Origin: Escherichia phage HK6
Sequence record: PP724615.1
DNA length: 64,000 nt
Strand: one strand, 5' to 3'
Position 1 is the first letter of the stretch. Each line of letters begins with the position of its first letter. Made by a program: the position numbers and the translations under genes. Below are positions 5,876 to 43,105 of the stretch, one piece after another. The notes below the pieces were generated by a model that was given only the letters and a program-made list of their open reading frames with translations, made no database searches and was not told the origin of the DNA.

Positions 5876-6145
5876 TTATTTCTTACCTTTCAGTTGCTTA
5901 ACTTCACGCTCAAAAGATGCTGCACGGCGTTCGGCAGTTGCTTGATGCTCTTTAGCAAAACGTGCTTCCTGTTTTGCTAGGTTGAACGCCATAGCATTCT
6001 TATTCAGGGAATCATACATCTTTTTCATTGCCGGAATAGACATCTTCATGAGCTGGCCTTCAAAACCCTGCATGTCGAGGAGAATTGCCAGAACGTTAGC
6101 CATTTCATTTTTAGTCATGTTTTCCATTAGAATTTCCTCTCTCAT
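5876..6145 (-). CDS. Hypothetical protein (89 aa)
   Basis: ORF track; promoter module upstream at about 6139-6190. Confidence 0.5.
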   Translation of the reverse strand: MREEILMENMTKNEMANVLAILLDMQGFEGQLMKMSIPAMKKMYDSLNKNAMAFNLAKQEARFAKEHQATAERRAASFEREVKQLKGKK

Positions 6146-6205
6146 TAATTTATGAACTTATTATACAGAATTTTAAGGCTTAAAGCAACTGAATTTTTTA
6201 ATTAC

Positions 6206-6637
6206 TTACCAATCGTTAACAACGCCGGAGAACTCAGAAGCAAAAACTTTTTCAAATTTCTCTGCAATTTCAGGATGATCTTTGCAGATCAGCTCAATAC
6301 AGGCTTCTGGAGTCATTCCTTCATCTTCAGGATCACCATAGTATTTATCCCAAAGATCATCAGGAATGATATGTTCCGCCAAATCTTGGAAAGAGATTAA
6401 CTGATAACGTTCTGCCTCCTCAGCGATAAGAATTTCGCACAGATCTTTATCTATATCACTACGATAATCCGCAATTAATAGGGCATTGCAAGCATGACAT
6501 TCCCAGACCATCAAACGTTCAGAGATAGGATTAGACTTATCTTGGACGTAAGACTGGAACAAGGTTCGGAAAGTTGCCTTAACTTGTTCAAACTTATCTG
6601 CTGCTGCGAAAACTAGAGCTTTATCAACTTTGTTCAT
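6206..6637 (-). CDS. Hypothetical protein (143 aa)
   Basis: ORF track; promoter module upstream at about 6646-6700. Confidence 0.55.
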   Translation of the reverse strand: MNKVDKALVFAAADKFEQVKATFRTLFQSYVQDKSNPISERLMVWECHACNALLIADYRSDIDKDLCEILIAEEAERYQLISFQDLAEHIIPDDLWDKYYGDPEDEGMTPEACIELICKDHPEIAEKFEKVFASEFSGVVNDW

Positions 6638-6804
6638 TTTGATTCCTTCTCATCAATTTATAAAATAATTATACAGAAACTTAAGCATTTTAGCAAATAA
6701 AACTTTTAATTAAAATGCCTAATCCCGTGCCAATAGCAATACAAAGGATTATAAGTATTGCTATCGCTTGTATGATTCGTTTAATAATAGCCTCAGCTAT
6801 ATAC

Positions 6805-8437: not shown

Positions 8438-8503
8438 TTAATCCTCCAATCAATTTATATAAGTATTATATCAAAATTTTTAGCAAAAAGCAAGTAAAAT
8501 AAA

Positions 8504-8529
8504 AGCCTGATCAGCTAAGATCAGGCTTT
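8504..8529 (-). terminator. Hairpin plus T-run terminator downstream of thioredoxin-like gene
   Basis: AGCCTGATC..GATCAGGCT stem, T-rich tracts on both sides. Confidence 0.55.
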
Positions 8530-9249: not shown

Positions 9250-9324
9250 AATATATACCTCTCTTAACTAATTTATGTATATATTATATAATAACTAGGG
9301 CTAAAAGTCAACTACTTTTTTATC

Positions 9325-13794: not shown

Positions 13795-13861
13795 ATTTAA
13801 TCCTCTTGCCTCAATCTATAAACATATTATACAAAAGTTTGGGCATCTAAGCAACTAAAAT

Positions 13862-13903
13862 TTTATTATAAAAATAGCCCAGTCGCAAAAGTGCAGGCTG
13901 GGC
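13862..13903 (-). terminator. Hairpin plus T-run terminator
   Basis: AGCCCAG..CTGGGCT stem followed on the minus strand by ATTTTTATAAT. Confidence 0.5.
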
Positions 13904-15920: not shown

Positions 15921-15950
15921 TTCAAACCTCTCTCATCAATTTATAAACAT

Positions 15951-15979
15951 ATTATAGCAAGAAAAGAGAGGTTTAGCAA
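15951..15979 (-). promoter_or_regulatory. Conserved early promoter (-35 TTGCTA, 17 bp, -10 TATAAT)
   Basis: Minus-sense TTGCTAaacctctcttttcttgcTATAAT; one of about 22 copies of this module. Confidence 0.65.
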
Positions 15980-15996
15980 ATGAATTATTTCAGAAT

Positions 15997-16344
15997 TTAG
16001 TCATAGCACCACCATAACCCACGTTTACGCATGTCATGATCGCGATTATAATCATAATTTTCTGGATCTTTCATCACGCGGTGGAGTTCTTGACGATTCC
16101 CTTGACGAACCATTTTATTAGAATGCCACTTAACATTCTTACTAATAGAATTCCAGTTATAACCATCCTTTTTCTCATTACGAATGGTTGCTTCCTTCAT
16201 TTCTTTTTTGATGTCGTCCCAGGATTTGGCATAAATAACACGAATCCAGTAGCCATTTTCTTTGAGGAAAGAATATTCTTGAGAGAATTGTTCTTTAGAC
16301 TTCCACCACTGATCACCAGATTGTCTACGATAAGTACGGCTCAT
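15997..16344 (-). CDS. Hypothetical Trp-rich protein (115 aa)
   Basis: ORF track. Confidence 0.5.
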   Translation of the reverse strand: MSRTYRRQSGDQWWKSKEQFSQEYSFLKENGYWIRVIYAKSWDDIKKEMKEATIRNEKKDGYNWNSISKNVKWHSNKMVRQGNRQELHRVMKDPENYDYNRDHDMRKRGLWWCYD

Positions 16345-17977: not shown

Positions 17978-18226
17978 TTGGTTTCCCTCTCATTAATTTA
18001 TATAAATATTATAACAAGAAATAAGAGAGAAAGCAAATGAATTTTTAATAAAGTTTAGTCACTTCATAAACTATACTACGAGATTCTTTATTACGTTCTA
18101 TTAAATTAGCATATGCTTTTTCAGCTTCATTTTTAGTATTAAAGTCTATAACGTGGGAGGTATTAGCTCTGTTTGATTGGCTATACCAGATAACTACTAG
18201 GAGTTTAAACATACTAGTCCTTAAAT

Positions 18227-18478: not shown

Positions 18479-18730
18479 TCAGCCATTAGAGAGTACAGTA
18501 CTGGTAGTTGGCAATACTACAGATGAAGCAACAGTGTTTAAATGCTTTCTCCAGTCTAGGTTAAATTGTTTTCGAAACTCTTCATAAGGTTCTTCTGGAT
18601 AAAAGCTAAAACCTCCTTTCTCATCATTCAGGATAACAGAGCCGTCAGTTTGTTCGTATGCTCGGTATGTTTCTCCAATAACAATAACTCGTTTATCGGT
18701 ACTTTTATTACGAAACTCAAAAACGTGCAT
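18479..18730 (-). CDS. Hypothetical protein (83 aa)
   Basis: ORF track. Confidence 0.45.
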   Translation of the reverse strand: MHVFEFRNKSTDKRVIVIGETYRAYEQTDGSVILNDEKGGFSFYPEEPYEEFRKQFNLDWRKHLNTVASSVVLPTTSTVLSNG

Positions 18731-19424: not shown

Positions 19425-19451
19425 ATTTTATTTCCTATTTAAGTTAATTTG

Positions 19452-20765: not shown

Positions 20766-20770
20766 AAATT

Positions 20771-20844: not shown

Positions 20845-21129
20845 AAATTCTTTAGTTTACTAAGGCTATTAGCTCGGCGTAACTACAGCACCTTCGCTTC
20901 GAGCGGAAGGAACCGCGTCATCTCGCAAACCCGATACACTATTCAGTTGCCGCTGAATCTAGTGGACTAATCTAGAACTTCTCCCGAATCGTAGGGATCG
21001 TGCTTTTTGGCAGCCAGTCCTAGGTCGAGCTAATACCTTAGTGAACTATGATGAGGATTTCTCCTCATCAATTTATATTGATATTATAACAAGAAATTAA
21101 GCATCAAGCAACTGCATTTTTCTTGAAAT

Positions 21130-21764: not shown

Positions 21765-22217
21765 TTAGCTTTCCTTCTCTTCACTTTATAAGATATATTA
21801 TACAGAGAATTAAGCAGAATAGCAAATGAATTTTTAATAAATTTACTTATTGTGTAGGCCACCTGGAGGCTACCAACCCCACGGCTGACAAAGAAGTTTG
21901 CGAGACCTCTCTTAAATGCCAGAATAGACCCGCCGATCTATCGGAACCTACATAATAAGTAAACTTTATAGTGTCATTCTAGACAGGACTCGAACCTGTT
22001 ATCACTTGTGCGGACTTACGAGAACCATTCTTTCACTCGAATCGAACGAGCTTCTGCCCTCGCCAAGCTGGTTTCCCCATCAACCACGCTAGAATGTTTG
22101 ATTATTTTCAGTGCAAGAGTCCGAGTCTTGGACACGACCGCTTCGCAAGTACATAGGCTGCTTATCATGAGTCAGCACTTCCGAATTGCTAGCTCCGTGT
22201 TCTGCACTGAAATTTTG

Positions 22218-23529: not shown

Positions 23530-23598
23530 ATTTATCTTATTCTATCATGTTGCTTCTCCAGTTCAATTTATGTAATTATTATACAGAACTTTTGGAAA

Positions 23599-23886
23599 CT
23601 AAGCAACTACATTTTTTAAAAATTTGATGCCTTTCTTTTTCTTCTTATATTTCCACGTTAATGGATTCTGTCGATTATGAACGCTTGAGATCTTTGTCTC
23701 GTCAAAGTTCTTCAATATCATGTAATCACAAGATAATTGTTCTAGTGGAATGTGATCACCATCAAAAGCATATACATAAGGCTGTTGACTAGCACGATAA
23801 TGATAGACTTTGTTAATTCTACGTTTCAGCGACTTATCCGCGCAGTAAATAAAGAAGTTTTCAGGATGCATCAGCAGCTCCTTCAA
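23599..23886 (-). CDS. Hypothetical protein (95 aa)
   Basis: Promoter module upstream at about 23540-23620. Confidence 0.5.
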   Translation of the reverse strand: MKELLMHPENFFIYCADKSLKRRINKVYHYRASQQPYVYAFDGDHIPLEQLSCDYMILKNFDETKISSVHNRQNPLTWKYKKKKKGIKFLKNVVA

Positions 23887-24219: not shown

Positions 24220-24417
24220 AAATTCTCTTTAAGGTAGCCAGTGTTACCGCACTGACTAGGAGTTATCGGTAAAATGGTGGGGGCCATCTGCCAAAAATTT
24301 ACTCTGCTAAAGTAAGAACTACCTTAAAAAGAACTTTCCAAATTAGATAAATATTATACCAAGTTTTATAGTATTGGGCAAGTCAAATTTTAAAGAACTT
24401 GCCCAATGCTGTATTAG

Positions 24418-24693: not shown

Positions 24694-24783
24694 TCATTAA
24701 CTCCTTCATCAATTTATATAACTATTATATCAGAAATTTAAAGCAAAAGGCAAGTACATTTTTAAAAATTCTGTTTGGAGGAG

Positions 24784-25829: not shown

Positions 25830-25918
25830 CTGGCGGAAGAAGTGGGAATCGAACCCACAAGGCTATATTTCAAACCGACAGATTAGCAATCTGCTGCAAT
25901 ACCGTTATGCTATTCTTC
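25830..25918 (-). tRNA. tRNA-Ser (GCT), long variable arm
   Basis: Acceptor GGAAGAA/TTCTTCC; anticodon arm GCAGA-TTGCTAA-TCTGT; T-arm GTGGG-TTCGATT-CCCAC. Confidence 0.7.
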
Positions 25919-25940
25919 CGAATTTATAAGATATATTATA

Positions 25941-26510
25941 TTAGAAATTTAGCTTCATAGCAAGAAAATTTTTCAAGTTTTCGGTAGACATCTCATCCAC
26001 ATCTACAGGAGAAACAAATCCATTTAATTTTCTAGCAAATTTTTCACCAGCAGGATCGTTGTCCCCGACAGCTACTAATTTAAAAGGTAATAATTTCAAT
26101 TGCTTTAATAACGCTTTTCCTGGAGAAGAACCCAACATTGCCAGGGCTGGGTAACCAGCATTATGTAACGCAACTGCCTTAAATACAGATTCAGCGATCA
26201 ATACTACTTTTTCATCTCCATTGAGAGTTTCTAGTCCCCATACACACTGGGTAGTAGAATAAGTAAAGTATTTAGCTTCAAAGGGGCACTTACCATGACC
26301 TTTTGGAGCAGAAGGATTGTAAGTTTGATAGCCCCTCAACATCCCAGAGAAGTCATACAACGGGACAGTTAGCCATCCTTCCGGACTTAACCAGCAATGA
26401 TATTTATCTGTATCAAATCCTCTAGATAAGAGGTGCTGTGTTAGCTCATCAACATTCATATTTGGTTCCTCTCTCAAATTTATAGATATATTATACAGAG
26501 AATTTAGCAT
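25941..26510 (-). CDS. Toprim-domain protein (189 aa)
   Basis: VAVGDNDPAGEKFARKL resembles the Toprim DxD acidic motif; no zinc-binding primase domain. Confidence 0.5.
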   Translation of the reverse strand: MLNSLYNISINLREEPNMNVDELTQHLLSRGFDTDKYHCWLSPEGWLTVPLYDFSGMLRGYQTYNPSAPKGHGKCPFEAKYFTYSTTQCVWGLETLNGDEKVVLIAESVFKAVALHNAGYPALAMLGSSPGKALLKQLKLLPFKLVAVGDNDPAGEKFARKLNGFVSPVDVDEMSTENLKNFLAMKLNF

Positions 26511-26634
26511 TCAAGCAATCAAATTTTTTAACTTTTTAGAGGAGAATCATAGGGCACTTAAGGGTAGCAGATAAGTGGTGAGGACCAAAATTTGTGACCC
26601 CACTAAAAATCCGGGGGCAATTTTTAAAGATCCC

Positions 26635-29461: not shown

Positions 29462-29536
29462 TGGCCGAGGTGACAGGATTCGAACCTGCATAAAGGAATT
29501 TAGAAGACTCCTGCCTCTCCCTTAGACTACACCCCG
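29462..29536 (-). tRNA. tRNA-Arg (TCT)
   Basis: Acceptor CGGGGTG/CACCTCG; anticodon arm GGAGT-CTTCTAA-ATTCC; T-arm GCAGG-TTCGAAT-CCTGT. Confidence 0.65.
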
Positions 29537-30040: not shown

Positions 30041-30112
30041 CCGACCGTAGGATTCGAACCTACATCTTCCACCAGTTACGGCTTGATAATACCAATTATA
30101 ATAGGACGGCAG
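30041..30112 (-). ncRNA. tRNA-like element without a clean anticodon stem
   Basis: Canonical T-arm GTAGG-TTCGAAT-CCTAC and partial acceptor pairing; no 5+7+5 anticodon arm found. Confidence 0.3.
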
Positions 30113-30370
30113 TGTTACTACATAAGTGATTTCCATACCCCACTATTTATAAATTAGAGAAGAGTTTAGGGGAGAGGTTTCAGACGCCTCATTTTACACG
30201 TTCTAGCCACTAACCGGGATTGCCGCCCCCTGTGTACTAGTTTTACAACTAACCCACCGACTCTATTCAATGCGCTCCGGTTGGGATTCTGCATTCAGCG
30301 TAATCGGCTCGCTGTTCCCTAATTTATGAATATATTATACATAATTTATAAGCATTTAGCAAATGAATTT

Positions 30371-30805
30371 TTAGAAAAATTCACTAGCAATCAAAGCAGT
30401 TGTTTTACCGTCATAACGTCCAGGAAACTCTGCCTTAATAGTTTTCATTAATAGAGCTTTGGTAATACCTGGGTTTAATTTAACCAGTTCTGCAAAATAC
30501 TCACGAATTTCAGTTTCAGTCAGTTGACTTGGCTGATACTCTTGCAGCATGGAATAAAGCAGTTGCTCATAGTCTACATCAGTAGGAACTTTCGTACCAA
30601 CTTTAATAGCGCGCTGTTTTGCATTTTCTAGAGCCTTAATCTGAGCTTTCAGATAGGCTACGAACTCGGTTCGAGTAACAATGTCTTTATCAATACGTTG
30701 CAGATCACCAATCATGGTCTGAAGATTAAGTGCCCGCTCTTTATCACCGTGAGTACGTGCTAGACTAAGCAGTCCACGAAGGGTCATTAGGATATTTTCA
30801 CCCAT
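30371..30805 (-). CDS. Hypothetical protein (144 aa)
   Basis: ORF track. Confidence 0.55.
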   Translation of the reverse strand: MGENILMTLRGLLSLARTHGDKERALNLQTMIGDLQRIDKDIVTRTEFVAYLKAQIKALENAKQRAIKVGTKVPTDVDYEQLLYSMLQEYQPSQLTETEIREYFAELVKLNPGITKALLMKTIKAEFPGRYDGKTTALIASEFF

Positions 30806-30808
30806 TAT

Positions 30809-30976
30809 TTCATCCCCAATGCTTGGTTAAAAGATTGTTCTGTCATAACTGCTGAGACTTTGGCGAAATCAAACTTTTTAGGGTTCGTAGTGATTTCAGC
30901 AACGTTAGAAGTTTTAACAGTTTTCGTAGTACGAAAACCGCGAGTGTTAACACCAATAATTACAACTGATTTCATA
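30809..30976 (-). CDS. Small hypothetical protein (55 aa, below track threshold)
   Basis: ATG behind a GAGAGGAAG RBS and a promoter module; read by eye. Confidence 0.35.
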
Positions 30977-31043
30977 TTTCGCTTCCTCTCATTAATTTAT
31001 GAAAGTATTATACAGAAATTTAAGTAATTAAGCAAGTAAATTT

Positions 31044-31511
31044 TTAAGTTTTAGTGACAACAGGTTTATAGAATGTATGTCCCTTAATCTTAGTTGTTTT
31101 CTTAAATTTCTTTGTCCAGTAAGGTTTATCTTTACCACTATGGAAGTATAGTGCTCCATGTGTAGGATCTTGTGGTAAATCAACGTAGTATATCACTCTA
31201 GCTAAATTCTTAGCGGTTTGCCAAGCCTCATCAGTTTTATCAACTTTTGGTCTCTTAGATACCCAAGAGAACTGGTTAGACTGATATACTACTTTACAGT
31301 AGGAATCTGGGAATTTACCGGAGTTTACACGGTTTTTAGTAACATGTGCAATCGCCGTCATTCCCTTTATGCCCTCACCACGACTTTCGAAATAGATATT
31401 TTTAGCAATGCAATCTATTTCTTTTGCATCGTGCGATGCCTGACTACTAAAGCTGAAGGTAAGGGCAGCTACTAAAAGCAAAGCTGCCTTCATTCTTCTT
31501 ACTCCTGCCAA
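31044..31511 (-). CDS. Secreted SleB-like cell wall hydrolase (155 aa)
   Basis: Signal peptide; IAKNIYFESRGEG...TAIAHVTKNRV resembles the SleB/hydrolase_2 family. Confidence 0.7.
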   Translation of the reverse strand: MAGVRRMKAALLLVAALTFSFSSQASHDAKEIDCIAKNIYFESRGEGIKGMTAIAHVTKNRVNSGKFPDSYCKVVYQSNQFSWVSKRPKVDKTDEAWQTAKNLARVIYYVDLPQDPTHGALYFHSGKDKPYWTKKFKKTTKIKGHTFYKPVVTKT

Positions 31512-31816
31512 TCATATTCAACACGATTGGGATTTTCTTTATACCCTAAGTCAAGCAAATCATTACGCATATTTTGCTTAGCTACTGGGTTCGAGGTTAC
31601 TAGTACCACTTTCTTTGGTCTCTGCCCAAATTCTAAGAGTAAACGAAGAATTTGATAACCTTCCATACCATCTACAGCCAAGTCATTATCCATATAAACG
31701 AAATGGCCTGTGGTATCAGTTTTATTCAGAAACTCTACAGCGGCTTCTGGGGTTCGAATGATAATGTCCATTCCGTGAAGATTACGCACATCATCAATCA
31801 AAATATGAAAAGTCAT
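31499..31816 (-). CDS. CheY-like receiver-domain candidate (105 aa)
   Basis: ILIDDV, VYMDNDL and LVTSNP spaced like receiver-domain acidic pocket, phospho-Asp and conserved Thr/Ser; weak. Confidence 0.4.
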   Translation of the reverse strand: MTFHILIDDVRNLHGMDIIIRTPEAAVEFLNKTDTTGHFVYMDNDLAVDGMEGYQILRLLLEFGQRPKKVVLVTSNPVAKQNMRNDLLDLGYKENPNRVEYDWQE

Positions 31817-32258
31817 AATAGCCTCGTTTCATCAATTTAAAAATATATTATACAGATAACTTAGTAAATTAGCAAATACATTTTTAAATTGTGAAACTAG
31901 TAAACCGATAAACAGCCTAGAGGCGCCACAGGCCATATCTTATGAGCCATGTACCTTTGATCTAGGGTTTGAATCATCAACGAATACTTTGCATCTTTTA
32001 GCTTTAAAAGTTTAGAAGTTTGAGTTCTTTAAACTTTTTAGCTTTCATACTTAAATGTTGATCTTTGAAGTTGTGTCGGTAATATCAACGACGCTTTGTT
32101 TTTACGTGTCAGATTAAATGTCTGATGTAATAAACATAATCTCCAATAGATTATACTTTATAGTATGGTCAGCGGTCTTATTTAACCTCGTATTTCAACC
32201 GCTGCTGCGAGGTAAGATGCTTGGGCTTTCGTCTACCGATTTACTAGCTTTTAAATTA

Positions 32259-32897
32259 TTACTCTACTTCAATGAAGGTAGAGGCGTTAGACTCGGACAG
32301 AACAAAGTCAACATTTGTTGCAAAGTCCTGGTATTCCTCGTCATGCTGCTTAATCAGCTTTTCCAGTTCCAGCGGGTCAATCAAGAATGGAGTATTCTTG
32401 AGTTCCAGCAGGTTGAGCTGCATTTTAACTTCATCTTCGGAAGTTTTCTTATCGCGGGTAGCCATGCTATCCTGCAAACGCTCATATTTAGCATCAAACT
32501 GTGCTTTCTGCGTATTAAACTTAACCGTAGCGGCATGGAACTGCTTACGCATGTTAGCCAGCAGTTGAGCTTTAAGTTCCATAGAACGCTTAGCTTCAAT
32601 TGCTTCCGCAACAGTCATCTTACGAGAGCCAATCTCAACGACTGTTTCCGCATTGCTTTTAATCAGAGCAGCTTTGATACGATCACGCTGGGACATCATA
32701 TCCAGGAGAGATTGGAAATCTGCCTTAATACGAGCAGACAGATCGTCTACTTCGATTGCAGCGCCAACTACAACCTTATTTTTATCCTTACCTTCACCAA
32801 CAGCGATCAGAAGCTGTTGTTCAGTAGCTTTACGAATTTTAGCTTCCAGAGATTTGATAGTTGCCAGAGCGCGAGTTTTAGAGATACGAGTAGTCAT
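32259..32897 (-). CDS. Hypothetical helical protein (212 aa)
   Basis: Chosen over the antisense 270-aa ORF by codon style and strand context. Confidence 0.55.
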   Translation of the reverse strand: MTTRISKTRALATIKSLEAKIRKATEQQLLIAVGEGKDKNKVVVGAAIEVDDLSARIKADFQSLLDMMSQRDRIKAALIKSNAETVVEIGSRKMTVAEAIEAKRSMELKAQLLANMRKQFHAATVKFNTQKAQFDAKYERLQDSMATRDKKTSEDEVKMQLNLLELKNTPFLIDPLELEKLIKQHDEEYQDFATNVDFVLSESNASTFIEVE

Positions 32898-33133: not shown

Positions 33134-33203
33134 ATTTGTTTTCCTTTTATTGTTTTCTCAAATTTATGAATATATTATACAGAATTTTGGAGCCGGAAGC
33201 AAA

Positions 33204-33905
33204 TCAAATTTTCATTTTTTCGATCATAGCTGCAACACAATAGCTCTCAACTAAGGCATCGAATGCTGGATCATGTTTAACCGGATAGATCCCATAACGA
33301 ATAGTGTCCATTTTCTCCATTTTAGCGGTTGCCCAGCTAATACCTTCAGCCTCTAGCTCTTTGTAACTATATCCAGCTTGCATCCAGAGATTACGAAGAG
33401 ATCGAACATTGCCCAAATTCCAGAATTTCCACGGAACTACCTCTTCATTGGTTCCAGCATGGAAAGTGTTTGCAGAGTAGATAGTCATATCAAACTCTGG
33501 GCCATTGCCATAATACAAAGCATTATCGCCTAGAGCCAACTCCATAATATTTTGAGCCATAGAGTAGGCAGCATAGTTAGAGCCGAGTTTATTAGTACAA
33601 TGATGTTTACCGTTTTGGAATGCAATCAGCTTTGGATTACGCTCGTTCATAGCTTGCATAATGTGGATAGCAGACGGACTGTCTTTAGCTTGATCCATCC
33701 AGAATGCTAGAGTAGATGCTGTAACTTTGGCACCAGAATTAAGCTGATCCTGCACATCCAAAGTAACAAATACTAGATCAGGGTCTTTATCAATTCCATG
33801 CATAGCCACAAAAGCGAATGAAGGCATTGCGATATGAGTAGTACCACAATCTCCCGGAGTTCCCAGAGATTCAATATCTAGCATACCAAATGGTTTTACT
33901 TTCAT
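33204..33905 (-). CDS. DEDD-type 3'-5' exonuclease (233 aa)
   Basis: Exo I-like MLDIESLG near the N-terminus and H..D..AFDA near the C-terminus. Confidence 0.6.
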   Translation of the reverse strand: MKVKPFGMLDIESLGTPGDCGTTHIAMPSFAFVAMHGIDKDPDLVFVTLDVQDQLNSGAKVTASTLAFWMDQAKDSPSAIHIMQAMNERNPKLIAFQNGKHHCTNKLGSNYAAYSMAQNIMELALGDNALYYGNGPEFDMTIYSANTFHAGTNEEVVPWKFWNLGNVRSLRNLWMQAGYSYKELEAEGISWATAKMEKMDTIRYGIYPVKHDPAFDALVESYCVAAMIEKMKI

Positions 33906-34491: not shown

Positions 34492-35007
34492 TTACTTCGC
34501 TTTACGCTTGCGAGCTGGTTTAGCAGATTTACGGGCAGAATCACCCGTGAACTTAATGCCTACACCGTAACACAGAGCGCGAACGTTATCTTTACTATAC
34601 TCTACGCCAAAGATATTTGGCTTAACAGAACCAAACTGTCCACGAGCATCACGTAGTACGTCTGCCGTTGGTTTACGCTTCTGGTTAACTGCTTTCTCAT
34701 AGTCTTTCATAGCCATGCCATTACGAGAGAACAATTCAGCCCCAGCGTTGAAGCTCAGGGAAACTGGGACAGATTTGTGGCCGTAATTTTCTACATACAT
34801 AACCATTTTGTAGGATTTACGGGTGGCATTTTTAGCTTTAGGCTTCTGACGAATCGGAGCCGGATTATTCAGTGCTTGTGCAGCCTGAGCATCGGTAGGA
34901 TGCTTACGCAGGTGGCGTTCCAGACGAGCTTTGCGATTAGCCTCGGTCTGCGGGAAAGTTTTAACTGCCGGAGCTGCTTGAGTTTTTGCGTTTTTCTGCT
35001 TAGCCAT
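34492..35007 (-). CDS. Basic protein with Lys/Arg-rich termini (171 aa)
   Basis: Basic N- and C-termini, optimal-looking codons. Confidence 0.55.
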   Translation of the reverse strand: MAKQKNAKTQAAPAVKTFPQTEANRKARLERHLRKHPTDAQAAQALNNPAPIRQKPKAKNATRKSYKMVMYVENYGHKSVPVSLSFNAGAELFSRNGMAMKDYEKAVNQKRKPTADVLRDARGQFGSVKPNIFGVEYSKDNVRALCYGVGIKFTGDSARKSAKPARKRKAK

Positions 35008-35082
35008 TATTTGTTTTCCTTTTTGTTTATCAATTTATGAAGTATATTATACGAGAATTTGAAGCGTTTAGCAAATGAATTT

Positions 35083-35532
35083 TTAATTTATTAACTGTAA
35101 GCTTCTTTTAATTTCAGACCTTACCTGCATCAAAAGAACTCCTAAAGTATTATCCCCGATGCCTCGGCAAACACCCCAATATGTATCTCCCCAGGTATTT
35201 CCTTCGATCAAAGTTGCATTTTTTGTTGCTAACAGTTTGTCCCTCAAATCAGGGATTGCAAACTTTAACCGTAAAAGCTCTAGCATTACATCATCTTTTA
35301 CCTTATCCCAGTCAGAGCGCAGAGTTAATTTACGTCCTCTACGTTTGGCAACACCTGCATTTAGGGAGCGCAGTACATGAGCTACATCATCTTTTTGGTC
35401 GGATTTCATAGCCTGAAAAGCATGTTCTACAGTATCAGCATGCCATATTTCATTCAGATATTCAAAAGTAATTGGTGATAAATAAAAGTTTGATAAGAAA
35501 CTATAAGCACCTTTAAATTCAGTAATCTTCAT
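35083..35532 (-). CDS. NADAR / YbiA-like (DUF1768) protein (149 aa)
   Basis: Motifs FLSNFY, HAFQAMK, GNTWGDTYWGV typical of the YbiA/NADAR family. Confidence 0.7.
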   Translation of the reverse strand: MKITEFKGAYSFLSNFYLSPITFEYLNEIWHADTVEHAFQAMKSDQKDDVAHVLRSLNAGVAKRRGRKLTLRSDWDKVKDDVMLELLRLKFAIPDLRDKLLATKNATLIEGNTWGDTYWGVCRGIGDNTLGVLLMQVRSEIKRSLQLIN

Positions 35533-35813
35533 TTTTTACGCCCCGCATCTTTAGCCTCTTCGGCTGTATAGATATACTGATAAGCCCCTTTGGAGTATGC
35601 TGGAGCAGTACACATTTTCTTACGCTCAATCTCTTCTTGAGCTTTTCTTTCGCGTTCAGCTAATTCTTCGTCCAGATAAACTAAACGTTGTTCTGGAGGG
35701 GGTGGAAGACGTGTTTCTGGCTCACCAATATTAGCCTTTCTTATTTGACGAGGTGATTGTGCGCGTTTTCTCAATGGTTTAAATCCTAATGAATTTGAGT
35801 TATAAATCCGCAT
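35529..35813 (-). CDS. Hypothetical basic protein (94 aa)
   Basis: ORF track. Confidence 0.45.
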   Translation of the reverse strand: MRIYNSNSLGFKPLRKRAQSPRQIRKANIGEPETRLPPPPEQRLVYLDEELAERERKAQEEIERKKMCTAPAYSKGAYQYIYTAEEAKDAGRKK

Positions 35814-35890
35814 AAAGCCCTCCTCACTTTCAATACGAATATTATACTAAATTAGAGGGCTTTAAGCAAGAGAATTTTTCAATTTATTTA

Positions 35891-36379
35891 TCACATCTCA
35901 GCCATTTCAGCTTCAGTAATAACTGTATTACATAAGGCATCTACAGCTTCATTACCACTAATACCAGAATGTCCTTTAACCTTAATAAAGGTAGGGTTAG
36001 TATTATGAAAGTTGATATACTGCTGTGTTAATTTAAATGCTTCCTGCCAAAGTTCTAGATTAAGAGGAACTTCACCATCTGCTTTCTTCCAGCCTTTCCT
36101 TTGCCAAGAAAACATCCAACTTTCCATGCCATTTTTGCAATAAGCAGAGTCAGTATAGATAGCAATTGGTCTATTATCTTTTTTAACAGACCAACGTAGA
36201 GCTTCTACGATAGCTGTGAGTTCCATCTCATTATTTGTAGTTTTAGGATTATAACCAGATTTAGAACCTAAACGATCGTAGTTATCATCATAGACAATAA
36301 AACCCCAAGCACCTGGACCTGGGTTAGACTTACAAGCACCATCTGTGTAAATGTGGAAAACCGACATTATACCTCCCAA
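35891..36379 (-). CDS. rnhA: Ribonuclease HI (162 aa)
   Basis: TDGACKSNPGPGAWG, TNNEMEL and KGHSG motifs align with E. coli RNase HI. Confidence 0.85.
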   Translation of the reverse strand: MGGIMSVFHIYTDGACKSNPGPGAWGFIVYDDNYDRLGSKSGYNPKTTNNEMELTAIVEALRWSVKKDNRPIAIYTDSAYCKNGMESWMFSWQRKGWKKADGEVPLNLELWQEAFKLTQQYINFHNTNPTFIKVKGHSGISGNEAVDALCNTVITEAEMAEM

Positions 36380-36648
36380 CTAATTTTAAGACCCATGTCT
36401 ACAAAGGCGGCTTCTCGGTAGTATTGTGAGAGATGATACCCCTTATCCGATAAGGTTTTTAGTACCGATTTAGCTGCTCCTGGCATTTCTCTAGGATTAT
36501 ATAGCCACCTAGCGTAAGGATTATCTCGAATAATTACTTCTGTATTTCCAGACTTAGCAGCTTCTACAATCTTTTCTTCTATAAACTTTAGAAATGCAGG
36601 TACTTCTGTTAACCCTGCAAGTTCTTGAGCTTCTTTGGCTGAAATCAT
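36367..36648 (-). CDS. Hypothetical protein (93 aa)
   Basis: ORF track. Confidence 0.5.
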   Translation of the reverse strand: MISAKEAQELAGLTEVPAFLKFIEEKIVEAAKSGNTEVIIRDNPYARWLYNPREMPGAAKSVLKTLSDKGYHLSQYYREAAFVDMGLKISWEV

Positions 36649-36741
36649 TATATACCTCCAATTTATAAAATATATTATATTTAAATTTCACTAAATAAGC
36701 AAATGAAATTTAAATATAATAGCCCCGAAGGGCTACTTAAG

Positions 36742-37581
36742 TTAAGAGGACATTTTAGCTTTAAGAGCTGGATGTGGATCATATCCTTCAAGTTGGAAGG
36801 ACCAAGCCGCAGTATTATTCTCTAATAAATCATAGAGATCTACAAATTCTGGCATTACTAGAGTTGGCAAAGGACGTGGTTTGCGTTTCATTTGCTCCTC
36901 TACTTGCTCTATATGATCACTGTAAATATGTGTATCTCCACCACTAAAGATGAGATAACGAGGTTTTAATCCAGTCAGTTTTGCCAGGATATGTGTTAAT
37001 AAAGCATAGCTAGCAATATTGAAAGGCAGACCTAGAAAACAGTCTACAGAACGTTGTGTCCATTTAAGGTCTAAGTATCCATCATTACTTACGTAACATT
37101 GAAAACCATAGTGACATGGTGGTAATGCCATCTTATCCAGTTCAGCTACGTTCCATGCGGATACTAGGTGTCTACGACCGTGTGGATTATTCTTGAGACC
37201 CTCAATGAGTTCTAGGATCTGATCTCGTCCACCAAAGTTACGCCATTGTTTACCATATACTGGCCCTAGATTACCATTGTCATATCCCATACTTATGGCT
37301 TGGTCTTCATAATTTGGAGTCCAGATGGTCCACTGTCCTTCGTCACGCCCAAATGTGAATACTCGCAGATCATGGAGATTTGTAGATCCAGATAAAAACC
37401 ATAAGAGTTCTCCAACTACCGACTTCCAAGCTAGACGTTTTGTAGTTACAGCTGGAAATCCCTCACGTAAATCGAACTTAGCATAGGAATCAAAAATTGA
37501 AACTGTGCCTGTTCCTGTACGGTCGTTACGTGGTTCACCTAGTAGAATTACATCTGTTAGAATTTTTAAATATTGTTGCAT
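36742..37581 (-). CDS. thyA: Thymidylate synthase (279 aa)
   Basis: Active-site region PPCHYGFQ and other ThyA-conserved blocks. Confidence 0.9.
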   Translation of the reverse strand: MQQYLKILTDVILLGEPRNDRTGTGTVSIFDSYAKFDLREGFPAVTTKRLAWKSVVGELLWFLSGSTNLHDLRVFTFGRDEGQWTIWTPNYEDQAISMGYDNGNLGPVYGKQWRNFGGRDQILELIEGLKNNPHGRRHLVSAWNVAELDKMALPPCHYGFQCYVSNDGYLDLKWTQRSVDCFLGLPFNIASYALLTHILAKLTGLKPRYLIFSGGDTHIYSDHIEQVEEQMKRKPRPLPTLVMPEFVDLYDLLENNTAAWSFQLEGYDPHPALKAKMSS

Positions 37582-38114
37582 TAATAAGTAACCAATTCCT
37601 GTACAAATCGCAGGCTGTTATCACTGTTTGCGCCAGTTGCGTAAACTAAACGAGTAGATTCATAGTTGTAATCTAGAATCGTATTATCCAGATGTACATC
37701 TGCCTCTAGTTTTTGATTACTAAAGATTGTTGATACAAAAGCACTTTCAATATGTCCATGAATATACATTTCGTACAGTAATGTTGCACCGCCTAAAACC
37801 ACTGTCTGTTGATCTTTTAAGAATGTGGGTAATGTATCTCCAATCTTTGAAATTGGGGTATAGATACCATGTTTAATATCATCAGGCAGAGGACGATCCG
37901 CACGAATAAAGAGATCAGATTCTCCAATCATACGTTGCCGAACAACTTCTGGAAGTGCTAAATAAGTACCCGCACCAATGATGATGTTATCTGGATTCAA
38001 CACGTCCAGTTGAGAATAGAAAGCATCTAGTTCTTCTTTGAAGGAACCCCAGGGGAGTTTACCTCGGAGGCCGAACTCTCCATTCGGCCCAACTGCATAT
38101 ATTGCTGTAATCAT
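37581..38114 (-). CDS. frd: Dihydrofolate reductase (177 aa)
   Basis: DHFR-like N-terminus IYAVGPNGEFGLRGKLPW; directly upstream of thyA. Confidence 0.75.
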   Translation of the reverse strand: MITAIYAVGPNGEFGLRGKLPWGSFKEELDAFYSQLDVLNPDNIIIGAGTYLALPEVVRQRMIGESDLFIRADRPLPDDIKHGIYTPISKIGDTLPTFLKDQQTVVLGGATLLYEMYIHGHIESAFVSTIFSNQKLEADVHLDNTILDYNYESTRLVYATGANSDNSLRFVQELVTY

Positions 38115-39256: not shown

Positions 39257-39333
39257 TGATTTTCCTCTTTCTCACTATTTCAGGAATATTATAGCAAATC
39301 TGATAGCGATTAGCAAGTAAAATTTCAAAGAAA

Positions 39334-39355
39334 AAGGAGACCCGAAGATCTCCTT
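39334..39355 (-). terminator. Hairpin plus T-run terminator between nrdA and nrdB
   Basis: AAGGAGA..TCTCCTT stem followed on the minus strand by TTTCTTTGA. Confidence 0.55.
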
Positions 39356-39362: not shown

Positions 39363-41693
39363 TTAAATAGTACAACCACCGGATGCACAACCGGCTGCTT
39401 CTTCTCCAGCACCTCCACCATTTGCGGTATTGAAGTTAGCATAATACCAAGTTTTCCACCCATACTTAACAGCAGTCATGAAATCACGAACCACTACTGG
39501 GCCAGGAATGATTTCATTCTCAAACTTGGTGTAGTCATAGTACATATTCGTACTGATAGACTGACTGAAGAATTTCTGCATAGTTGCTACCCACTTGATC
39601 CACTCGATACGATCTACATCATAAGCCAGTTTATAGCTCATTAACGTTTCCCAATCGGTTGCACCCGGAGCAATTGCAATTACTTTATTCACTGCACTAC
39701 CCTTGATAGATACAATCTTACGAGGCGGTTCAATAGAGTTAGTAACACCTAACAGAACAGAAGAACTTTCTCCCGGCATCTGAGCAGTCAGAACAGAGTT
39801 ACGCATACCATATTTCAGAATATCTGCACGCAGAGACTCCCAGTCCATTTCTAGACCTACGGATACCAGTTCATCAACAGTTTTCTTGTACGTGTCGATT
39901 ACCAGAATTCCTTTAGATGGTTTAGTACGATCAAACCACTCACATGCACCCTGTTCTTTAGCTAGTCGTACAGAGGCTTTATGCAGGAAGTAAGACAGTT
40001 TTTCAGCCTCACGGTGAATCCAGTTACGGGCTTCAATACCTTCATAAGCCAGACCTTCTGCTGCCATTGCACCTGCTGCGTTCATTAGTCCAATACCAAC
40101 ATTACGACGTTTCTTAGCCGTATATTCCATAGTTGGGAACGGATAATCCTGAATTTCAATAATTGTATCAACGAATTTCAGAAGGATGTAGCAAGTTTTT
40201 TCCCACTCAGCTAGTGATTCCATACGTCCAAGTACAACACCACCTAAGTTACACAAAGATACTTCACCAATATCCTCCGGTTTCATTTGATCAAGCTGCT
40301 CTTTTGTCTTATACAGCTCTGTGATATGATGGAACGGGCGTGTAGGCTGAGTAATTTCAACACAAAGGTTTGTCATACGGATCGGATCAAGGAAATTACC
40401 GTGACGATTAGATTCCCCGATGTGATGAGCATACATACGTCCTGTTTCCATTCGGATACGTAGCCAAGTATCTAGGATTTCTTTTGCAGAGACTTTAGGA
40501 GCTGCAGGAACTGTTTTTCCTTCGTGGTCGATCTTTGTAAGAGATGCCACACGTTTCTCCGCTGCCACGTAGATTTCTTCAAATTTAGCCTCGTCATCAC
40601 TATAAAACGCTTCATGAACTTCTGGAGCATAGAAGTATGACATTAGCGTAATATCTTCGTTTTTAAGATAACGTTTTAACAAAAGATTGTTAAAGCTCAG
40701 AGAATAATCCATCTTATCGATTTTATTCTCATCTGTAGCACGTTGTTGCTTAACCTGCATCAATTGAATGATTTCAGGGTCGAAGTATGGATAAGACACT
40801 GTAGCAGAACCACCACGAGTTTGCTGAGTATTGGCCTTTACTGAGCGGTCAATGTGTCGATAATATGGCAGTTTTCCGGAATGCGGGAATGCCCCATTTC
40901 GCACCGGATCAGCAATTGATCGGCTTTCAAGATGATACCCGATTCCCGCTCTGGCTGCGACCATTTTGAAGACGATGTGCTCGGCGGTGTCGATTGAATC
41001 CAACGTGTCAGTGGAATCCACGAGGCAGCAACTAGCAAATCCACGGTCACTAGAGCGCAGACCAACCAGTGGCGGCGTAGGAACGTTGATTTTGTGGAGT
41101 GACATTGCGTTGTAGAGATCGATTGCATCTAGAATTGTCCAGTTAGGTTGAGATAGCATCGCCATTGCCATACCCATGTAGGCAAACTGCGGAGTTTCGT
41201 AAATTTCACCAGTGGCTATGTTACGACGGGAATACTTATCAAAGAACTGCTTCAGTCCACCACTAGTAAAAAGACGGTCACGATCATGGTCGATAACCTG
41301 ATTCAGAGCTTCAAATTGCTCATCGGTAATCCATGCACTCATGTCTTCCCATGCACCTACGCTAACCATATGGTCATGGAAGAAGCGTAGAGAAGGTGGT
41401 TCGAAAGAATCATAAAGGCGTTTACGCATTTGCGCAAGACGTAATTCCTTTGCTGGCACATCATATGCTGGATTATCTTTAATAAGACTTTCAGCAGCTT
41501 TAATTAATGCATCCATCAGAGTGTCGGAATCTACAACCCCTTTAGGCAGAGTTTTTTGAGCAGCCATAGTAATGGCTGACCAACTTACATCAACTGTTTT
41601 GCAACCATACTCTGCCCAACCATTGATTTTTTCAGGAGCAAAGTCTTCTACAGTACCGTCACGTTTAATTACTTTTTCAATGCGATGGCTCAT
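39363..41693 (-). CDS. nrdA: Ribonucleotide reductase class Ia large subunit (776 aa)
   Basis: ATP-cone N-terminus, catalytic core blocks, C-terminal Cys pair; start set at MSHRIEK behind an AGGAAA RBS, not the longer track ORF. Confidence 0.9.
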   Translation of the reverse strand: MSHRIEKVIKRDGTVEDFAPEKINGWAEYGCKTVDVSWSAITMAAQKTLPKGVVDSDTLMDALIKAAESLIKDNPAYDVPAKELRLAQMRKRLYDSFEPPSLRFFHDHMVSVGAWEDMSAWITDEQFEALNQVIDHDRDRLFTSGGLKQFFDKYSRRNIATGEIYETPQFAYMGMAMAMLSQPNWTILDAIDLYNAMSLHKINVPTPPLVGLRSSDRGFASCCLVDSTDTLDSIDTAEHIVFKMVAARAGIGYHLESRSIADPVRNGAFPHSGKLPYYRHIDRSVKANTQQTRGGSATVSYPYFDPEIIQLMQVKQQRATDENKIDKMDYSLSFNNLLLKRYLKNEDITLMSYFYAPEVHEAFYSDDEAKFEEIYVAAEKRVASLTKIDHEGKTVPAAPKVSAKEILDTWLRIRMETGRMYAHHIGESNRHGNFLDPIRMTNLCVEITQPTRPFHHITELYKTKEQLDQMKPEDIGEVSLCNLGGVVLGRMESLAEWEKTCYILLKFVDTIIEIQDYPFPTMEYTAKKRRNVGIGLMNAAGAMAAEGLAYEGIEARNWIHREAEKLSYFLHKASVRLAKEQGACEWFDRTKPSKGILVIDTYKKTVDELVSVGLEMDWESLRADILKYGMRNSVLTAQMPGESSSVLLGVTNSIEPPRKIVSIKGSAVNKVIAIAPGATDWETLMSYKLAYDVDRIEWIKWVATMQKFFSQSISTNMYYDYTKFENEIIPGPVVVRDFMTAVKYGWKTWYYANFNTANGGGAGEEAAGCASGGCTI

Positions 41694-42058
41694 TTGGCTT
41701 TCCTTTTTATAGTTATCAGGATTTAAGGAATATTCTACTTTATTATCGGTCATTAGGCAAATAAAATTTTCTGATAGAAAAGGCCCGAGTATTTTCATAC
41801 CCAGGCCCTGTATATTACCAGTCTAGCTTTTTAGCTTATTCAATTACTTTAGCTCTAGCTACTTCTTTTAATAGAATATCTATGGAGGTGCTCAGCTCGT
41901 TATAATTGAATGGTTTATTTGGATTTGAGGTTACAATTTTCCACGCTAGGGTTGTCTTAGGACTTTCTTCCCCTTCCTTACGTGTAATCATATTAGCAGC
42001 ACTCAGTGAAGTACGATGTATTTTAGTTTTACGGCTCAGATGAACGACGTTTCCCATA

Positions 42059-42820
42059 TTACACCTTCCCCATGTCTTTAAAAATATCATAGAATGCTTT
42101 AGACTCAACAGAACGAACGTTATCAATCAATTCGATCATTGAGAATGGGGCATTTTCGTATTTCTCATAGACTTCCATAAGGAGTGCTAGACCTGAGTCA
42201 CCTTTAATGTCTTTCTGAGCTATATCTCCGCAGATAATTAAACGGCAGTCTTGTCCTACACGAGTTAGGAGACAAATCATTGCCTCAACGGAAATATTCT
42301 GAGCTTCATCGACAATTACATAGGAGTTGTTGAAAGTTCTGCCACGAGCATGTTCGATAGCCAAAAATTTAATTTTCTGACGTTCGACATATCCTTTATA
42401 TGCATGATCGCCGATGGCCCATTTCATACCATCAGCTATTGGCTCCAACCAAGGTTCTAGCTTTTCCGCTAGATCACCAGGAAGCATACCAAGAGACTTG
42501 CCTAGAGGTTCATTAGGACGTACGAGAATCACTTGCTCAATATCTGAGTGAATGTCTACGAGTTCCTGAGCTGCAAGAACGGACGGAATAAAGGTTTTAC
42601 CAGTACCCGGCTCACCGATACCCACAGTCACTGTGTTGTTCTTGATCATATTGATATATGATTTTTGCTCGCGGTTTTTACCTACTAGGGATTTAGCAAC
42701 TGGATTAGCGTAATCATTAGAAAAATCAGCCTGAATTACGTTGTTCTCATATTTGTTGCCACGCTTTCTTGAACCATTGCGGTTCTCTCTTTTTTGACGT
42801 GCTTTTCCCATAAATAACAC
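42059..42820 (-). CDS. phoH: PhoH-like ATPase (253 aa)
   Basis: Walker A GEPGTGKT and VIVDEAQN Walker B; RBS AGGAG. Confidence 0.85.
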   Translation of the reverse strand: MLFMGKARQKRENRNGSRKRGNKYENNVIQADFSNDYANPVAKSLVGKNREQKSYINMIKNNTVTVGIGEPGTGKTFIPSVLAAQELVDIHSDIEQVILVRPNEPLGKSLGMLPGDLAEKLEPWLEPIADGMKWAIGDHAYKGYVERQKIKFLAIEHARGRTFNNSYVIVDEAQNISVEAMICLLTRVGQDCRLIICGDIAQKDIKGDSGLALLMEVYEKYENAPFSMIELIDNVRSVESKAFYDIFKDMGKV

Positions 42821-43105
42821 TCCTATAGTGTACTTCGCTAACAGAGGATCAACAAAAAGATCTTGTTTATCAACTTACAAATATATTATACCAATATATA
42901 CAGTAAAAAGCAACTACAATTTTAAATAAGCCTATGATATTGCATTTAAATAAAAAATTTGCTTGCTTTTAACGTGAGATGTGTGATACTAGATAATCAT
43001 TTTATATCGCGTGCACGAGTGCGTGATTATACAATTTTTAATAGAGATTGGCAAATAAAATTTTTTGACTCAGATCATGTTACAGAACTTTATAGTAAAA
43101 TATTG

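Follow-up and report, generated by a model that had tools for sequence, protein, structure and literature searches.

The repeated modules of the HK6 early region are almost certainly the early promoters of a T5-like phage, dependent on sigma-70 and each joined directly to a short leader for translation initiation. The window (the whole stretch of 64,000 nucleotides that was analyzed) corresponds to the early region of a Tequintavirus, a T5-like phage with about 97% identity to phage Lindwurm, and both of its divergent early gene blocks carry the module, with 23 copies on the minus strand and seven on the plus strand (n = 30). As strong T5-type early promoters combined with a ribosome-binding site, the repeats have been annotated and published before and are hence ordinary; the feature singled out by the first-pass annotation is real, was rightly interpreted and was previously known. 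The sole modest addition is that the module architecture is kept in Klebsiella and Vibrio Demerecviridae. The anatomy, statistics, positional orthology to T5, class specificity in T5 and conservation were established here, the literature supplies the N25 start site and kinetics as well as the evidence that P15A and Ppol are early, and we infer that every copy is active in HK6.

A search of the 64-kb window for TTGCT-N16-20-TATAAT returned 26 matches against an expected 0.54 ± 0.74, and none of 100 shuffles reached 26. We built a matrix of 66 columns (−36 to +29 around the −10 hexamer) from the 25 copies whose spacer is exactly 17 bp, and its scan of the window found 29 sites at 26-71 bits, compared with a top score of 6.1 in 50 Markov-shuffled windows. 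The resemblance among copies extends beyond the two hexamers: with the hexamers masked and each copy left out in turn, the module flanks have a median of 28.8 bits versus −49.7 for the window's 74 other TATAAT hexamers. Because a generic TTGACA/TATAAT scan was not enriched (58 found, 60.6 expected, with the remaining two thirds of the window similar), the over-represented signal is the T5-specific consensus; two ordinary sigma-70 promoters, at 3137(−) and 43129(+), were also detected. All 28 copies listed earlier (22 on the minus strand and six on the plus strand) coincide with matrix matches, and the scan added the two that had been overlooked, 24358(−) and 59762(+). The coordinates in that list are plus-strand left edges, 20-50 bp off the −10 hexamer.

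Each module consists of an A-tract at −45 to −41, TTGCTw, 17 bp, TATAAT, ATATTy and then A(+1)TAAATTGATGAGAGG, so that the conserved part spans about 65-70 bp (−46 to about +20) and not the roughly 55 bp first estimated. The −10 hexamer is TATAAT in 30/30 copies, followed directly by A in 24 of the 25 matrix-building copies. The −35 element is TTGCT in 26 copies, 25 with a 17-bp spacer and one (59762) with 18 bp, and the others carry the variants TTGCAG, TTGCCC, TTGACT or, next to a spacer of 18 bp, TTGCCT; the weaker copies 9288, 24358, 24729 and 59762 (scores 10-30) have an aberrant −35 hexamer or spacer length. Upstream, A occupies −45 to −42 in 21-24 of 25 copies and is followed by TT, a segment worth 9.9 bits, while in the downstream consensus TATAAT ATATTy A TAAATT the discriminator holds 3.4 bits and the start region 6.3 bits (all leave-one-out), both in agreement with published statements (PMC7472727; PMC3326045). 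The start codon lies 19-27 nt past the predicted start in 22 of 32 sites (the 30 modules and the two ordinary promoters), and five modules serve tRNAs or stable RNAs instead of a protein gene.

Table 1. Early promoter modules and candidate regulator genes in the HK6 window, with T5 coordinates.
Position	Strand	Feature	Score	T5 coordinates or identity
4118..4579	−	gpT5.026 homolog, candidate trans-acting partner		97% identical to T5.026
6133..6199	−	early promoter module; −10 at 6165-6160, predicted +1 6153, start codon +26 nt	70.9	16245-16319
6641..6707	−	module, P-F30 counterpart	63.8	16784
8438..8504	−	module immediately behind bidirectional terminator 8502-8529	53.2	18550-18624
9256..9322	−	module, −35 variant TTGACT	27.2	19368-19442
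13799..13865	−	early promoter module	60.0	24443-24517, T5 terminator annotated just upstream
15924..15990	−	early promoter module	59.9	26722-26796
17981..18047	−	module, counterpart of feature named P11 in T5 record	67.5	28597-28671
21056..21122	−	module, P13b counterpart; RNA2H homolog and tRNAs downstream, no ORF	58.3	32001-32075, then RNA2H
21770..21836	−	module, P13a counterpart	56.2	32757-32831
23551..23617	−	module, P14b counterpart; tRNA-Cys starts at predicted +1 plus 42 nt	56.6	34759-34833
24326..24392	−	module, TTGCCC −35, P14a counterpart, tRNA-Tyr/Glu/Phe group; overlooked earlier	30.1	35524-35598
24697..24763	−	module, P15c counterpart, TTGCCT-18-TATAAT	26.1	35897-35971
25908..25974	−	module, P15b counterpart; tRNA-Ser starts 9 nt past predicted +1	43.3	37247-37321
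26463..26529	−	module, P15a counterpart	66.2	37802-37876
30307..30373	−	module, P16-17 counterpart; about 790 nt without ORF (RNAX homolog), then tRNA-Arg	61.5	
30980..31046	−	module, P-D/E33 counterpart	70.2	42227-42301
31820..31886	−	early promoter module	64.1	43067-43141
33147..33213	−	early promoter module	58.9	44393-44467
35019..35085	−	module, P-H207 counterpart	52.7	45985-46059
35814..35880	−	early promoter module	43.8	46337-46411
36647..36713	−	module behind GC hairpin, ahead of thymidylate synthase operon	40.3	46937-47011
39261..39327	−	module immediately behind terminator 39334-39355, ahead of nrdB	45.5	50061-50135
42858..42924	−	module at divergence point, phoH-like gene after 67-nt leader	54.9	53638-53712
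45070..45136	+	module immediately behind terminator 45046-45070	57.1	55708-55782
48484..48550	+	module, TTGCAG −35, behind hairpin 48426-48448; about 490-nt leader	42.0	58999-59073
52026..52092	+	module, P-N25 counterpart (before D2), +1 = A at 52072	64.3	
53052..53118	+	module, P-N26 counterpart (before D3), leader 51 nt	51.1	64068-64142
54268..54334	+	module behind terminator 54234-54262, ahead of ligA	57.9	65284-65358
55715..55781	+	module, P-K28a counterpart (before ligB)	66.8	66459-66533
56557..57324	+	D5 homolog; PHROG 323		99% identical to T5 D5
59728..59794	+	module, 18-bp spacer, Ppol counterpart (before DNA polymerase gene); overlooked earlier; consensus match 59738-59767		70987-71061

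The assignment to strong T5-type early promoters, which had been proposed from the letters of this stretch, is borne out by position, as each of the 30 copies sits at a promoter feature of T5 (NC_005859). All 32 sites, the two ordinary promoters among them, can be aligned with T5 (77-99% identity), and in each the −10 lies within an annotated promoter feature. As judged from this alignment of the HK6 window with T5, the hexamers are under purifying selection, with mismatches at 0/174 positions of the −10 hexamer and 2/174 of the −35 hexamer, whereas the flanks show about 0.15 mismatches per site. Comparison with published T5 promoters showed that copy 52060 matches P-N25 exactly from −36 to +24, and its +1 is fixed because the −12 to +2 sequence of N25, TATAATAGATTCAT, is quoted in PMC7472727. 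When the HK6-derived matrix was applied to T5, every match of at least 24 bits fell within 16.2-75.5 kb or at the early-expressed lpp, with no match at the pre-early P-D/E20 and P-H22 or the late P-J5 and only 10.8 at the late P-G25; this restriction to the early region and lpp supports the early class of the HK6 modules. Moreover, P15A and Ppol, the T5 counterparts of 26495 and 59762, have early kinetics by primer extension (PMC7472727). Counting against the activity of every copy, published in vivo kinetics cover no more than a few of the T5 counterparts, and of 19 promoters known from in vitro work just 11 yielded primer-extension products in vivo (PMC7472727).

In the mechanism that we propose, host RNA polymerase holoenzyme would recognize the A-tract, the −35 TTGCTw, the −10 TATAAT and the discriminator ATATTy, four elements in all, with the A-tract (AAAAATT, −45 to −41) matching a proximal UP-element subsite and a 17-bp AT-rich spacer separating TTGCTw from the perfect TATAAT. 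Transcription is predicted to start at an A seven nucleotides past the −10 hexamer, and the AT-rich initial transcribed sequence ATAAATTGA may allow quick escape from a very stable open complex. At N25 the kon is 2.9e8 per M per s, open complexes have a half-life of 180 min and escape is limiting, and exchanging the promoter's own AT-rich initial transcribed sequence for another lowers output 10-fold (PMC12464699). The transcript would then lead directly into a purine-rich Shine-Dalgarno (GAGAGG/GGAG) and usually reach a start codon after 19-27 nt, through a leader predicted to be essentially without secondary structure.

The dense starts implied by the earlier picture of many short, individually promoted units are present, with a spacing of about 1.6 kb on the minus-strand side and of 1.6-2 kb over both early blocks; the separation of units by terminators is seen only in part, as an intrinsic terminator directly precedes only about 7 of 30 modules. 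The statement that nearly every minus-strand gap carries a module was likewise overstated, with about 23 modules for 39 gaps of at least 50 bp; between 6000 and 43000, 21 of these 39 gaps contain a module and two further modules overlap ORF ends, a count that rests on a crude gene model. Since only some of the gaps carry modules and few modules follow terminators, most transcription units probably overlap via read-through. The leftmost unit, running leftwards from 6165, covers about 5 kb of packed ORFs with one weak internal promoter only. A lambda-type loading site for Q antitermination (Q-binding element plus sigma-dependent pause) would call for a Q-family antiterminator encoded by the phage, and the one candidate gives no support for it: the 61-aa ORF at 25344-25529(−) is "Q-like" through PHROG 6060 alone, and its Pfam matches are to zinc ribbons, weakly, with none to a Q family.

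About 30 copies with a common consensus of about 65 bp, and spacers that hold a semi-conserved GCTTAAATT, might suggest a repeat scattered by duplication or by a mobile cassette, with the likeness of its copies reflecting common descent rather than selected function. We find this hardly credible, since the similarity between copies is centered on positions of known function while spacers and flanks vary freely, and the copies are oriented with transcription at a fixed distance to a start codon or RNA gene. In addition, terminal inverted repeats and target duplications are absent at the copies, every copy is positionally conserved in T5 with zero −10 mismatches, and distant relatives keep the architecture, not the copy sequence. 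It is also very unlikely that the downstream half (ATAAATTGATGAGAGG) is mainly an RNA-level element, that is, a shared structure or protein-binding site in the 5' leader. This half is transcribed in all copies, and positions +1 to +18 hold about 10 bits of leave-one-out information; however, the leaders fold no more than composition predicts (mean z −0.03; mean energy −2.0 kcal/mol, versus −5.0 for random 40-mers), and an Rfam search found tRNAs only. The copies serving tRNAs or stable RNAs retain ATAAATT and drop the GAGAGG part, as expected if the first half acts in initiation and escape and the second is a Shine-Dalgarno.

A third reading, which we regard as possible and rather doubtful, takes TTGCT (in place of TTGACA), ATATTy and ATAAATT to do more than tune how polymerase binds and escapes, and to form a cis target through which phage proteins, for example the gpT5.026 homolog and D5, shut off all early promoters at once at the early-to-late transition. 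These elements are class-specific in T5 and are still found in Vibrio phages with as little as 49-58% identity in the DNA polymerase, and the HK6 window encodes homologs of both proteins. The discriminator, with ATATT common to early promoters, is the main early/late promoter difference, and gpT5.026 is an RNA-polymerase-binding protein that weakens the discriminator contact, cutting polymerase binding to a −12 to +2 N25 oligonucleotide 8-fold, with more early transcripts in an 026 mutant (PMC7472727); D5 is noted in the T5 record as DNA-binding, involved in early-expression shut-off and required for late transcription. Against this, effects of gpT5.026 on transcription in vitro are at most two-fold and the 026 mutant still switches (PMC7472727), and open-complex stability and escape kinetics suffice to account for a discriminator and initial transcribed sequence rich in A and T. 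A shut-off target would in any case supplement the explanation of the modules as promoters and would not displace it.

Beyond HK6, the same promoter architecture is present in Klebsiella and Vibrio Demerecviridae, including the divergent Vibrio phages, and no matrix matches were found in the tail-gene regions of three distant relatives. The AKFV33 record (HQ665011) labels the same sites "T5 promoter consensus TTGCTT(N17-18)TATAATA", and the accompanying paper (PMC3326045) describes 32 "T5-like promoters" with TTGCTw, TATAATA, 17-18 bp, AAAAATT at −43 and TAAATT at +1; AKFV33 is a different isolate, and its paper is silent on the ribosome-binding-site fusion and on class specificity. T5 early promoters and those of HK6 are alike in TTGCTw-17-TATAAT(A), the A-tract at −43, the discriminator ATATT and the start region TAAATT, and differ in the UP element and spacer, where substitutions amount to about 5%, and to some extent farther upstream, though never in kind; a few T5 sites adjoin homing-endonuclease genes, which the HK6 window does not have. 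The T5 early promoters were reportedly studied by Gentz and Bujard in 1985. Similarly to the T5 module, rrnB P1, a strong sigma-70 promoter that depends on its UP element, has an A-tract where the proximal UP subsite lies and a −10 close to consensus, but its discriminator is GC-rich and its open complexes are short-lived, whereas the T5 module combines an AT-rich discriminator with extremely stable, escape-limited complexes. In T4, too, the early promoters follow an extended sigma-70 consensus of the phage's own, which occurs in many copies with A-rich sequence upstream and out-competes host promoters early in infection; they differ from the T5 type in having another −35 consensus, another mode of shut-off (ADP-ribosylation, AsiA/MotA) and no sequence relation.

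Matches to the pattern TTGCT-N16-20-TATAAT number 26 in the window (20 on the minus strand, six on the plus strand), where 0.54 ± 0.74 are expected, a count reached by none of 100 shuffles. Aligned on the -10 hexamer, whose position names each copy here, the module copies share the consensus tTAAAAATTyAnTTGCTw-N17-TATAAT-ATATTy-ATAAATTGATGAGAGG, usually followed by ATG. The weight-matrix check proposed in the first-pass annotation was run on the window with a matrix spanning -36 to +29, which returned 29 sites at 26-71 bits against a highest score of 6.1 over 50 shuffled windows, with further matches at a copy with an 18-bp spacer (59762) and at two ordinary promoters, 3137(-) and 43129(+). 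All 28 copies listed in that annotation were recovered by the scan, together with two that it had missed, 24358(-) and 59762(+). The flanks contribute independently of the hexamers: with both hexamers masked and in a leave-one-out design, they alone score a median of 28.8 bits (UP region 9.9, spacer 4.6, discriminator 3.4, +1 to +8 6.3, +9 to +18 4.2). The 74 other TATAATs in the window have a median flank score of -49.7, and only the extra sites already identified score positively among them. A generic TTGACA/TATAAT scan by thirds of the window found 58, 45 and 61 matches versus 60.6, 51.8 and 57.9 expected, unenriched over shuffles, indicating that the signal is a phage-specific consensus and that only this T5-specific form is over-represented. 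TATAAT...TAGCAA, the plus-strand pattern of the first-pass annotation in the wrong orientation, has one match, which is chance level.

The T5 reference record has 48 annotated promoters, many with names, and in BLAST comparisons of each window site with T5 every -10 hexamer fell inside a T5 promoter feature, which supports the initial reading of these sites as strong T5-type early promoters. On the full 121,750-bp T5 genome, the window-derived matrix gives 34 matches above 5 bits; those of at least 24 bits all lie within annotated promoters (30 of 30) and, except for one ahead of lpp, at 16.2-75.5 kb. The lipoprotein gene lpp is known to be expressed early, according to a reference as cited in PMC7472727. 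In the same scan the pre-early P-D/E20 and P-H22 and the late P-J5 are unmatched and the late P-G25 reaches 10.8 bits, these four having TTGACA-like -35 hexamers and imperfect -10 hexamers; the matrix cleanly tells early-class promoters apart from pre-early and late ones and from chance sigma-70-like sites. Mismatches between window and T5 amount to 0 of 174 positions in the -10 hexamers and 2 of 174 in the -35 hexamers, and per site to 0.048 in the UP region, 0.055 in the spacer, 0.092 in the discriminator and 0.060 at +1 to +8, compared with about 0.15 in the adjacent flanks, a value in part inflated by indels.

Window position 6165 corresponds to T5 16276, so that the window spans approximately 10.1-74.1 kb of T5; by sequence correspondence it is the T5 early region, starting just within the end of the left terminal repeat. 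Based on the ORF list and the AKFV33 and T5 annotations, it contains the T5 early genes nrdA/B, thy, frd, phoH, nrdD, D2, D3, ligA/B and D5, as well as the helicase, primase and DNA polymerase genes, and it carries 22-23 tRNA genes on the minus strand. The 12 kb at 20000-32000 match 611 phage records, with Escherichia phage Lindwurm the best (97.6%) and numerous T5-like phages of Salmonella and Escherichia next.

Promoters and other features of the window, with T5 counterparts
Feature	Position	Strand	T5 counterpart	Remark
Module	6673		P-F30	
Module	18013		P11 (record's name)	
Module	21088		P13b	upstream of homolog of stable RNA 'RNA2H'
Module	21802		P13a	
Module	23583		P14b	42 nt ahead of tRNA-Cys
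Module	24358	minus	P14a	upstream of Tyr/Glu/Phe tRNAs
Module	24729		P15c	
Module	25940		P15b	9 nt ahead of tRNA-Ser
Module	26495		P15a	
Module	30339		P16-17	upstream of ~790 nt homologous to 'RNAX'
Module	31012		P-D/E33	
Module	35051		P-H207	
Module	42890	minus		divergent gap
Module	52060		P-N25	
Module	53086		P-N26	
Module	55749		P-K28a	
Module	59762	plus	polymerase promoter (Ppol)	
TTGCCA-17-TATAAT	43054-43026	minus		divergent gap
TTGACA-17-TATAAT	43106-43134	plus		perfect double consensus, ahead of nrdD
TTGACA-17-TAAAGT	26635-26663		P12	island promoter, non-module
Plus-strand island	26635-28456	plus		three ORFs, 26666-28360
Bidirectional terminator	28426-28456			strong; closes island
Divergent gap	43026-43134	both		three promoters
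Module-free left end	1-6100	minus		packed ORFs
gpT5.026 homolog	4118-4579	minus		within left end
RNA2H homolog	20845-21076	minus	'RNA2H'	driven by module 21088
Hairpin	21049-21070			9 bp
Short frame	23530-23571	minus		ATG ATA GAA TAA, behind module 23583
Zinc-ribbon ORF	25344-25529	minus		61 aa, CxxC
Rfam tRNA	25750-25824	minus	tRNA-Ile2(CAU) position	40.2 bits
RNAX homolog	29537-30327	minus	'RNAX'	~790 nt without ORF, module 30339 to tRNA-Arg
tRNA-like element	30039-30110			Rfam tRNA 30.9 bits
Untranslated leader	48530-49021	plus		~490 nt, from module 48518
Invariant GCTTAGCGGC	48837-48846			within leader

We placed +1 at the seventh nucleotide past the -10 hexamer because copy 52060 (TATAATAGATTCAT) is identical to T5 N25 from -12 to +2 as quoted in PMC7472727. 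At 22 of 32 sites, made up of the 30 modules and the two ordinary promoters, a Shine-Dalgarno sequence and start codon follow 19-27 nt from the 5' end, so that promoter and ribosome-binding site form one unit of approximately 70 bp. These short leaders are 57-82% A+U (the majority 68-82%), with C nearly absent, and are essentially unfolded, at a mean energy of -2.0 kcal/mol versus -5.0 for random 40-mers. Five modules have no directly driven protein gene and instead precede tRNAs or stable RNA homologs; in these RNA-driving copies ATAAATT is kept and GAGAGG is lost, which argues that the initiation-and-escape part is separable from the translation part.

The overall mechanism, that of sigma-70-dependent early promoters each joined to a short translation-initiation leader, is supported by direct sequence evidence, positional orthology and the published biochemistry of one copy in the window. 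At N25, polymerase associates with a kon of 2.9e8 per M per s and the open complex has a half-life of 180 min, the rate limit is promoter escape, the native AT-rich initial transcribed sequence allows quick escape with few abortive products, and replacement of +3 to +20 lowers full-length RNA about 10-fold (PMC12464699). All three T5 temporal classes are transcribed by the sigma-70 holoenzyme, ATATT in the discriminator is common to early promoters, P15A and Ppol are early promoters by their in vivo behavior, and gpT5.026 binds the beta subunit, weakening its discriminator contact (PMC7472727). The window encodes a gpT5.026 homolog (97% identical) and D5 (99% identical).

The conservation pattern and the fixed relation of the copies to genes exclude a dispersed or mobile repeat. 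An RNA-level element in the leader is not supported, as the short leaders have no conserved structure (mean z versus shuffles -0.03) and Rfam searches of the whole window returned tRNAs only. A further reading, proposed in PMC7472727, holds that ATATTy-ATAAATT, the discriminator and start region specific to the early class, doubles as a regulatory target for shutting off early transcription. This reading adds to the promoter explanation, is compatible with all observations and agrees with the conservation of the region from coliphage T5 to Vibrio Demerecviridae; we consider it rather unlikely. That this region is a shared cis switch through which the gpT5.026 homolog and D5 silence some 30 early promoters jointly, with sigma unreplaced, we regard as unlikely. 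This conserved region provides a concrete cis element for the problem of the T5 early-to-late switch. More speculatively, TAAATT at +2 to +7, a -10-like hexamer retaining the critical A2 and T6, might be a candidate sigma-dependent promoter-proximal pause or loading site; the literature searched yielded nothing directly relevant on sigma-dependent pausing at N25, nor a genome-wide T5 start-site map.

An intrinsic terminator lies directly ahead of about seven of the 30 modules (8470, 13831, 36679, 39293, 45104, 48518 and 54302). Under a crude gene model, 21 of the 39 gaps of at least 50 bp at 6000-43000 contain a module and two more modules overlap ORF ends, so the original statement that nearly every gap carries one was too strong. 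The picture that results is one of many starts and few ends, in which transcripts probably overlap and share 3' ends, so that the short, individually promoted units of the first-pass annotation are an overstatement as well. The leftmost ~5 kb lacks a module, its sole promoter being a weak TTGACG-17-TATAAT at 3137, and would be one long unit, unlike the remaining early region. The divergent gap has its three promoters in T5 likewise. According to Gentz and Bujard, both consensus hexamers reportedly never occur together in strong T5 promoters. A plus-strand island with its own promoter and terminator interrupts the minus-strand block.

The RNA-encoding part of the window holds several other features. 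The frame behind module 23583 has only four codons and is followed by tRNA-Cys; T5 annotates a 42-codon ORF (T5.070) in this place, indicating that the small ORF is not conserved. The tRNA at the T5 tRNA-Ile2 position was detected by Rfam and missed by ARAGORN. PHROG 6060 ('anti-termination protein Q-like') includes the zinc-ribbon ORF of the tRNA cluster, which some related records label 'antitermination protein Q'; Pfam shows no Q family for this ORF, leaving the label unsupported, and we rejected it as evidence for Q-type regulation. In the RNA2H homolog, the Shine-Dalgarno-like GAGGAG of module 21088 pairs with downstream sequence in the hairpin. The tRNA-like element of the RNAX homolog is annotated as tRNA-Ser-CGA in one related record, and permissive Rfam scans of the two long transcripts without an ORF yielded nothing credible beyond one tRNA-like match. 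The long leader ends at the replication-origin-binding/helicase gene, and a gap of matching length occurs in T5, AKFV33 and Klebsiella IME260. Conservation covers the initial ~110 nt and the final ~90 nt of this leader, and its center is replaced, except for GCTTAGCGGC, invariant in 4 of 4 sequences; consensus folding had only these four, of which the central 300 nt fail to align.

In an exact-pattern scan of viral contigs, nearly all of the matches listed fall in contigs as long as T5-like genomes (104-128 kb); unrelated contigs, examined as a sample only, have isolated single matches. Distant family members, scanned over 42 kb of their early regions, still have matrix sites immediately ahead of genes and oriented with transcription: seven sites of about 25 bits or more in Klebsiella IME260 (polymerase 78% identical), three at 34-42 bits plus weaker ones in Vibrio phage Gary (58%), and nine at 12-39 bits in Vibrio phage D115 (49%). 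These sites share the A-tract, TTGCnn, 17 bp, TATAATA, yATAAA and a Shine-Dalgarno sequence, and the tail-gene regions of the same three phages have no matrix sites. The architecture thus characterizes the family and is not peculiar to coliphage T5, the sole point that goes slightly beyond statements found in the literature. The matrix could annotate hundreds of T5-like genomes that now lack promoter features.

T5 early promoters are textbook material, and commercial 'T5 promoter' expression vectors are built on P-N25. As a discovery the module carries little weight, since it is already known and carries public annotation in GenBank, in both the T5 and the AKFV33 entries. In the AKFV33 entry the same sites bear the label 'T5 promoter consensus TTGCTT (N17-18) TATAATA (Wang et al. 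2005)', and the accompanying paper counts 32 promoters of this kind, which have AAAAATT near -43 and TAAATT at +1 (PMC3326045), which is the same module that the first-pass annotation had described.
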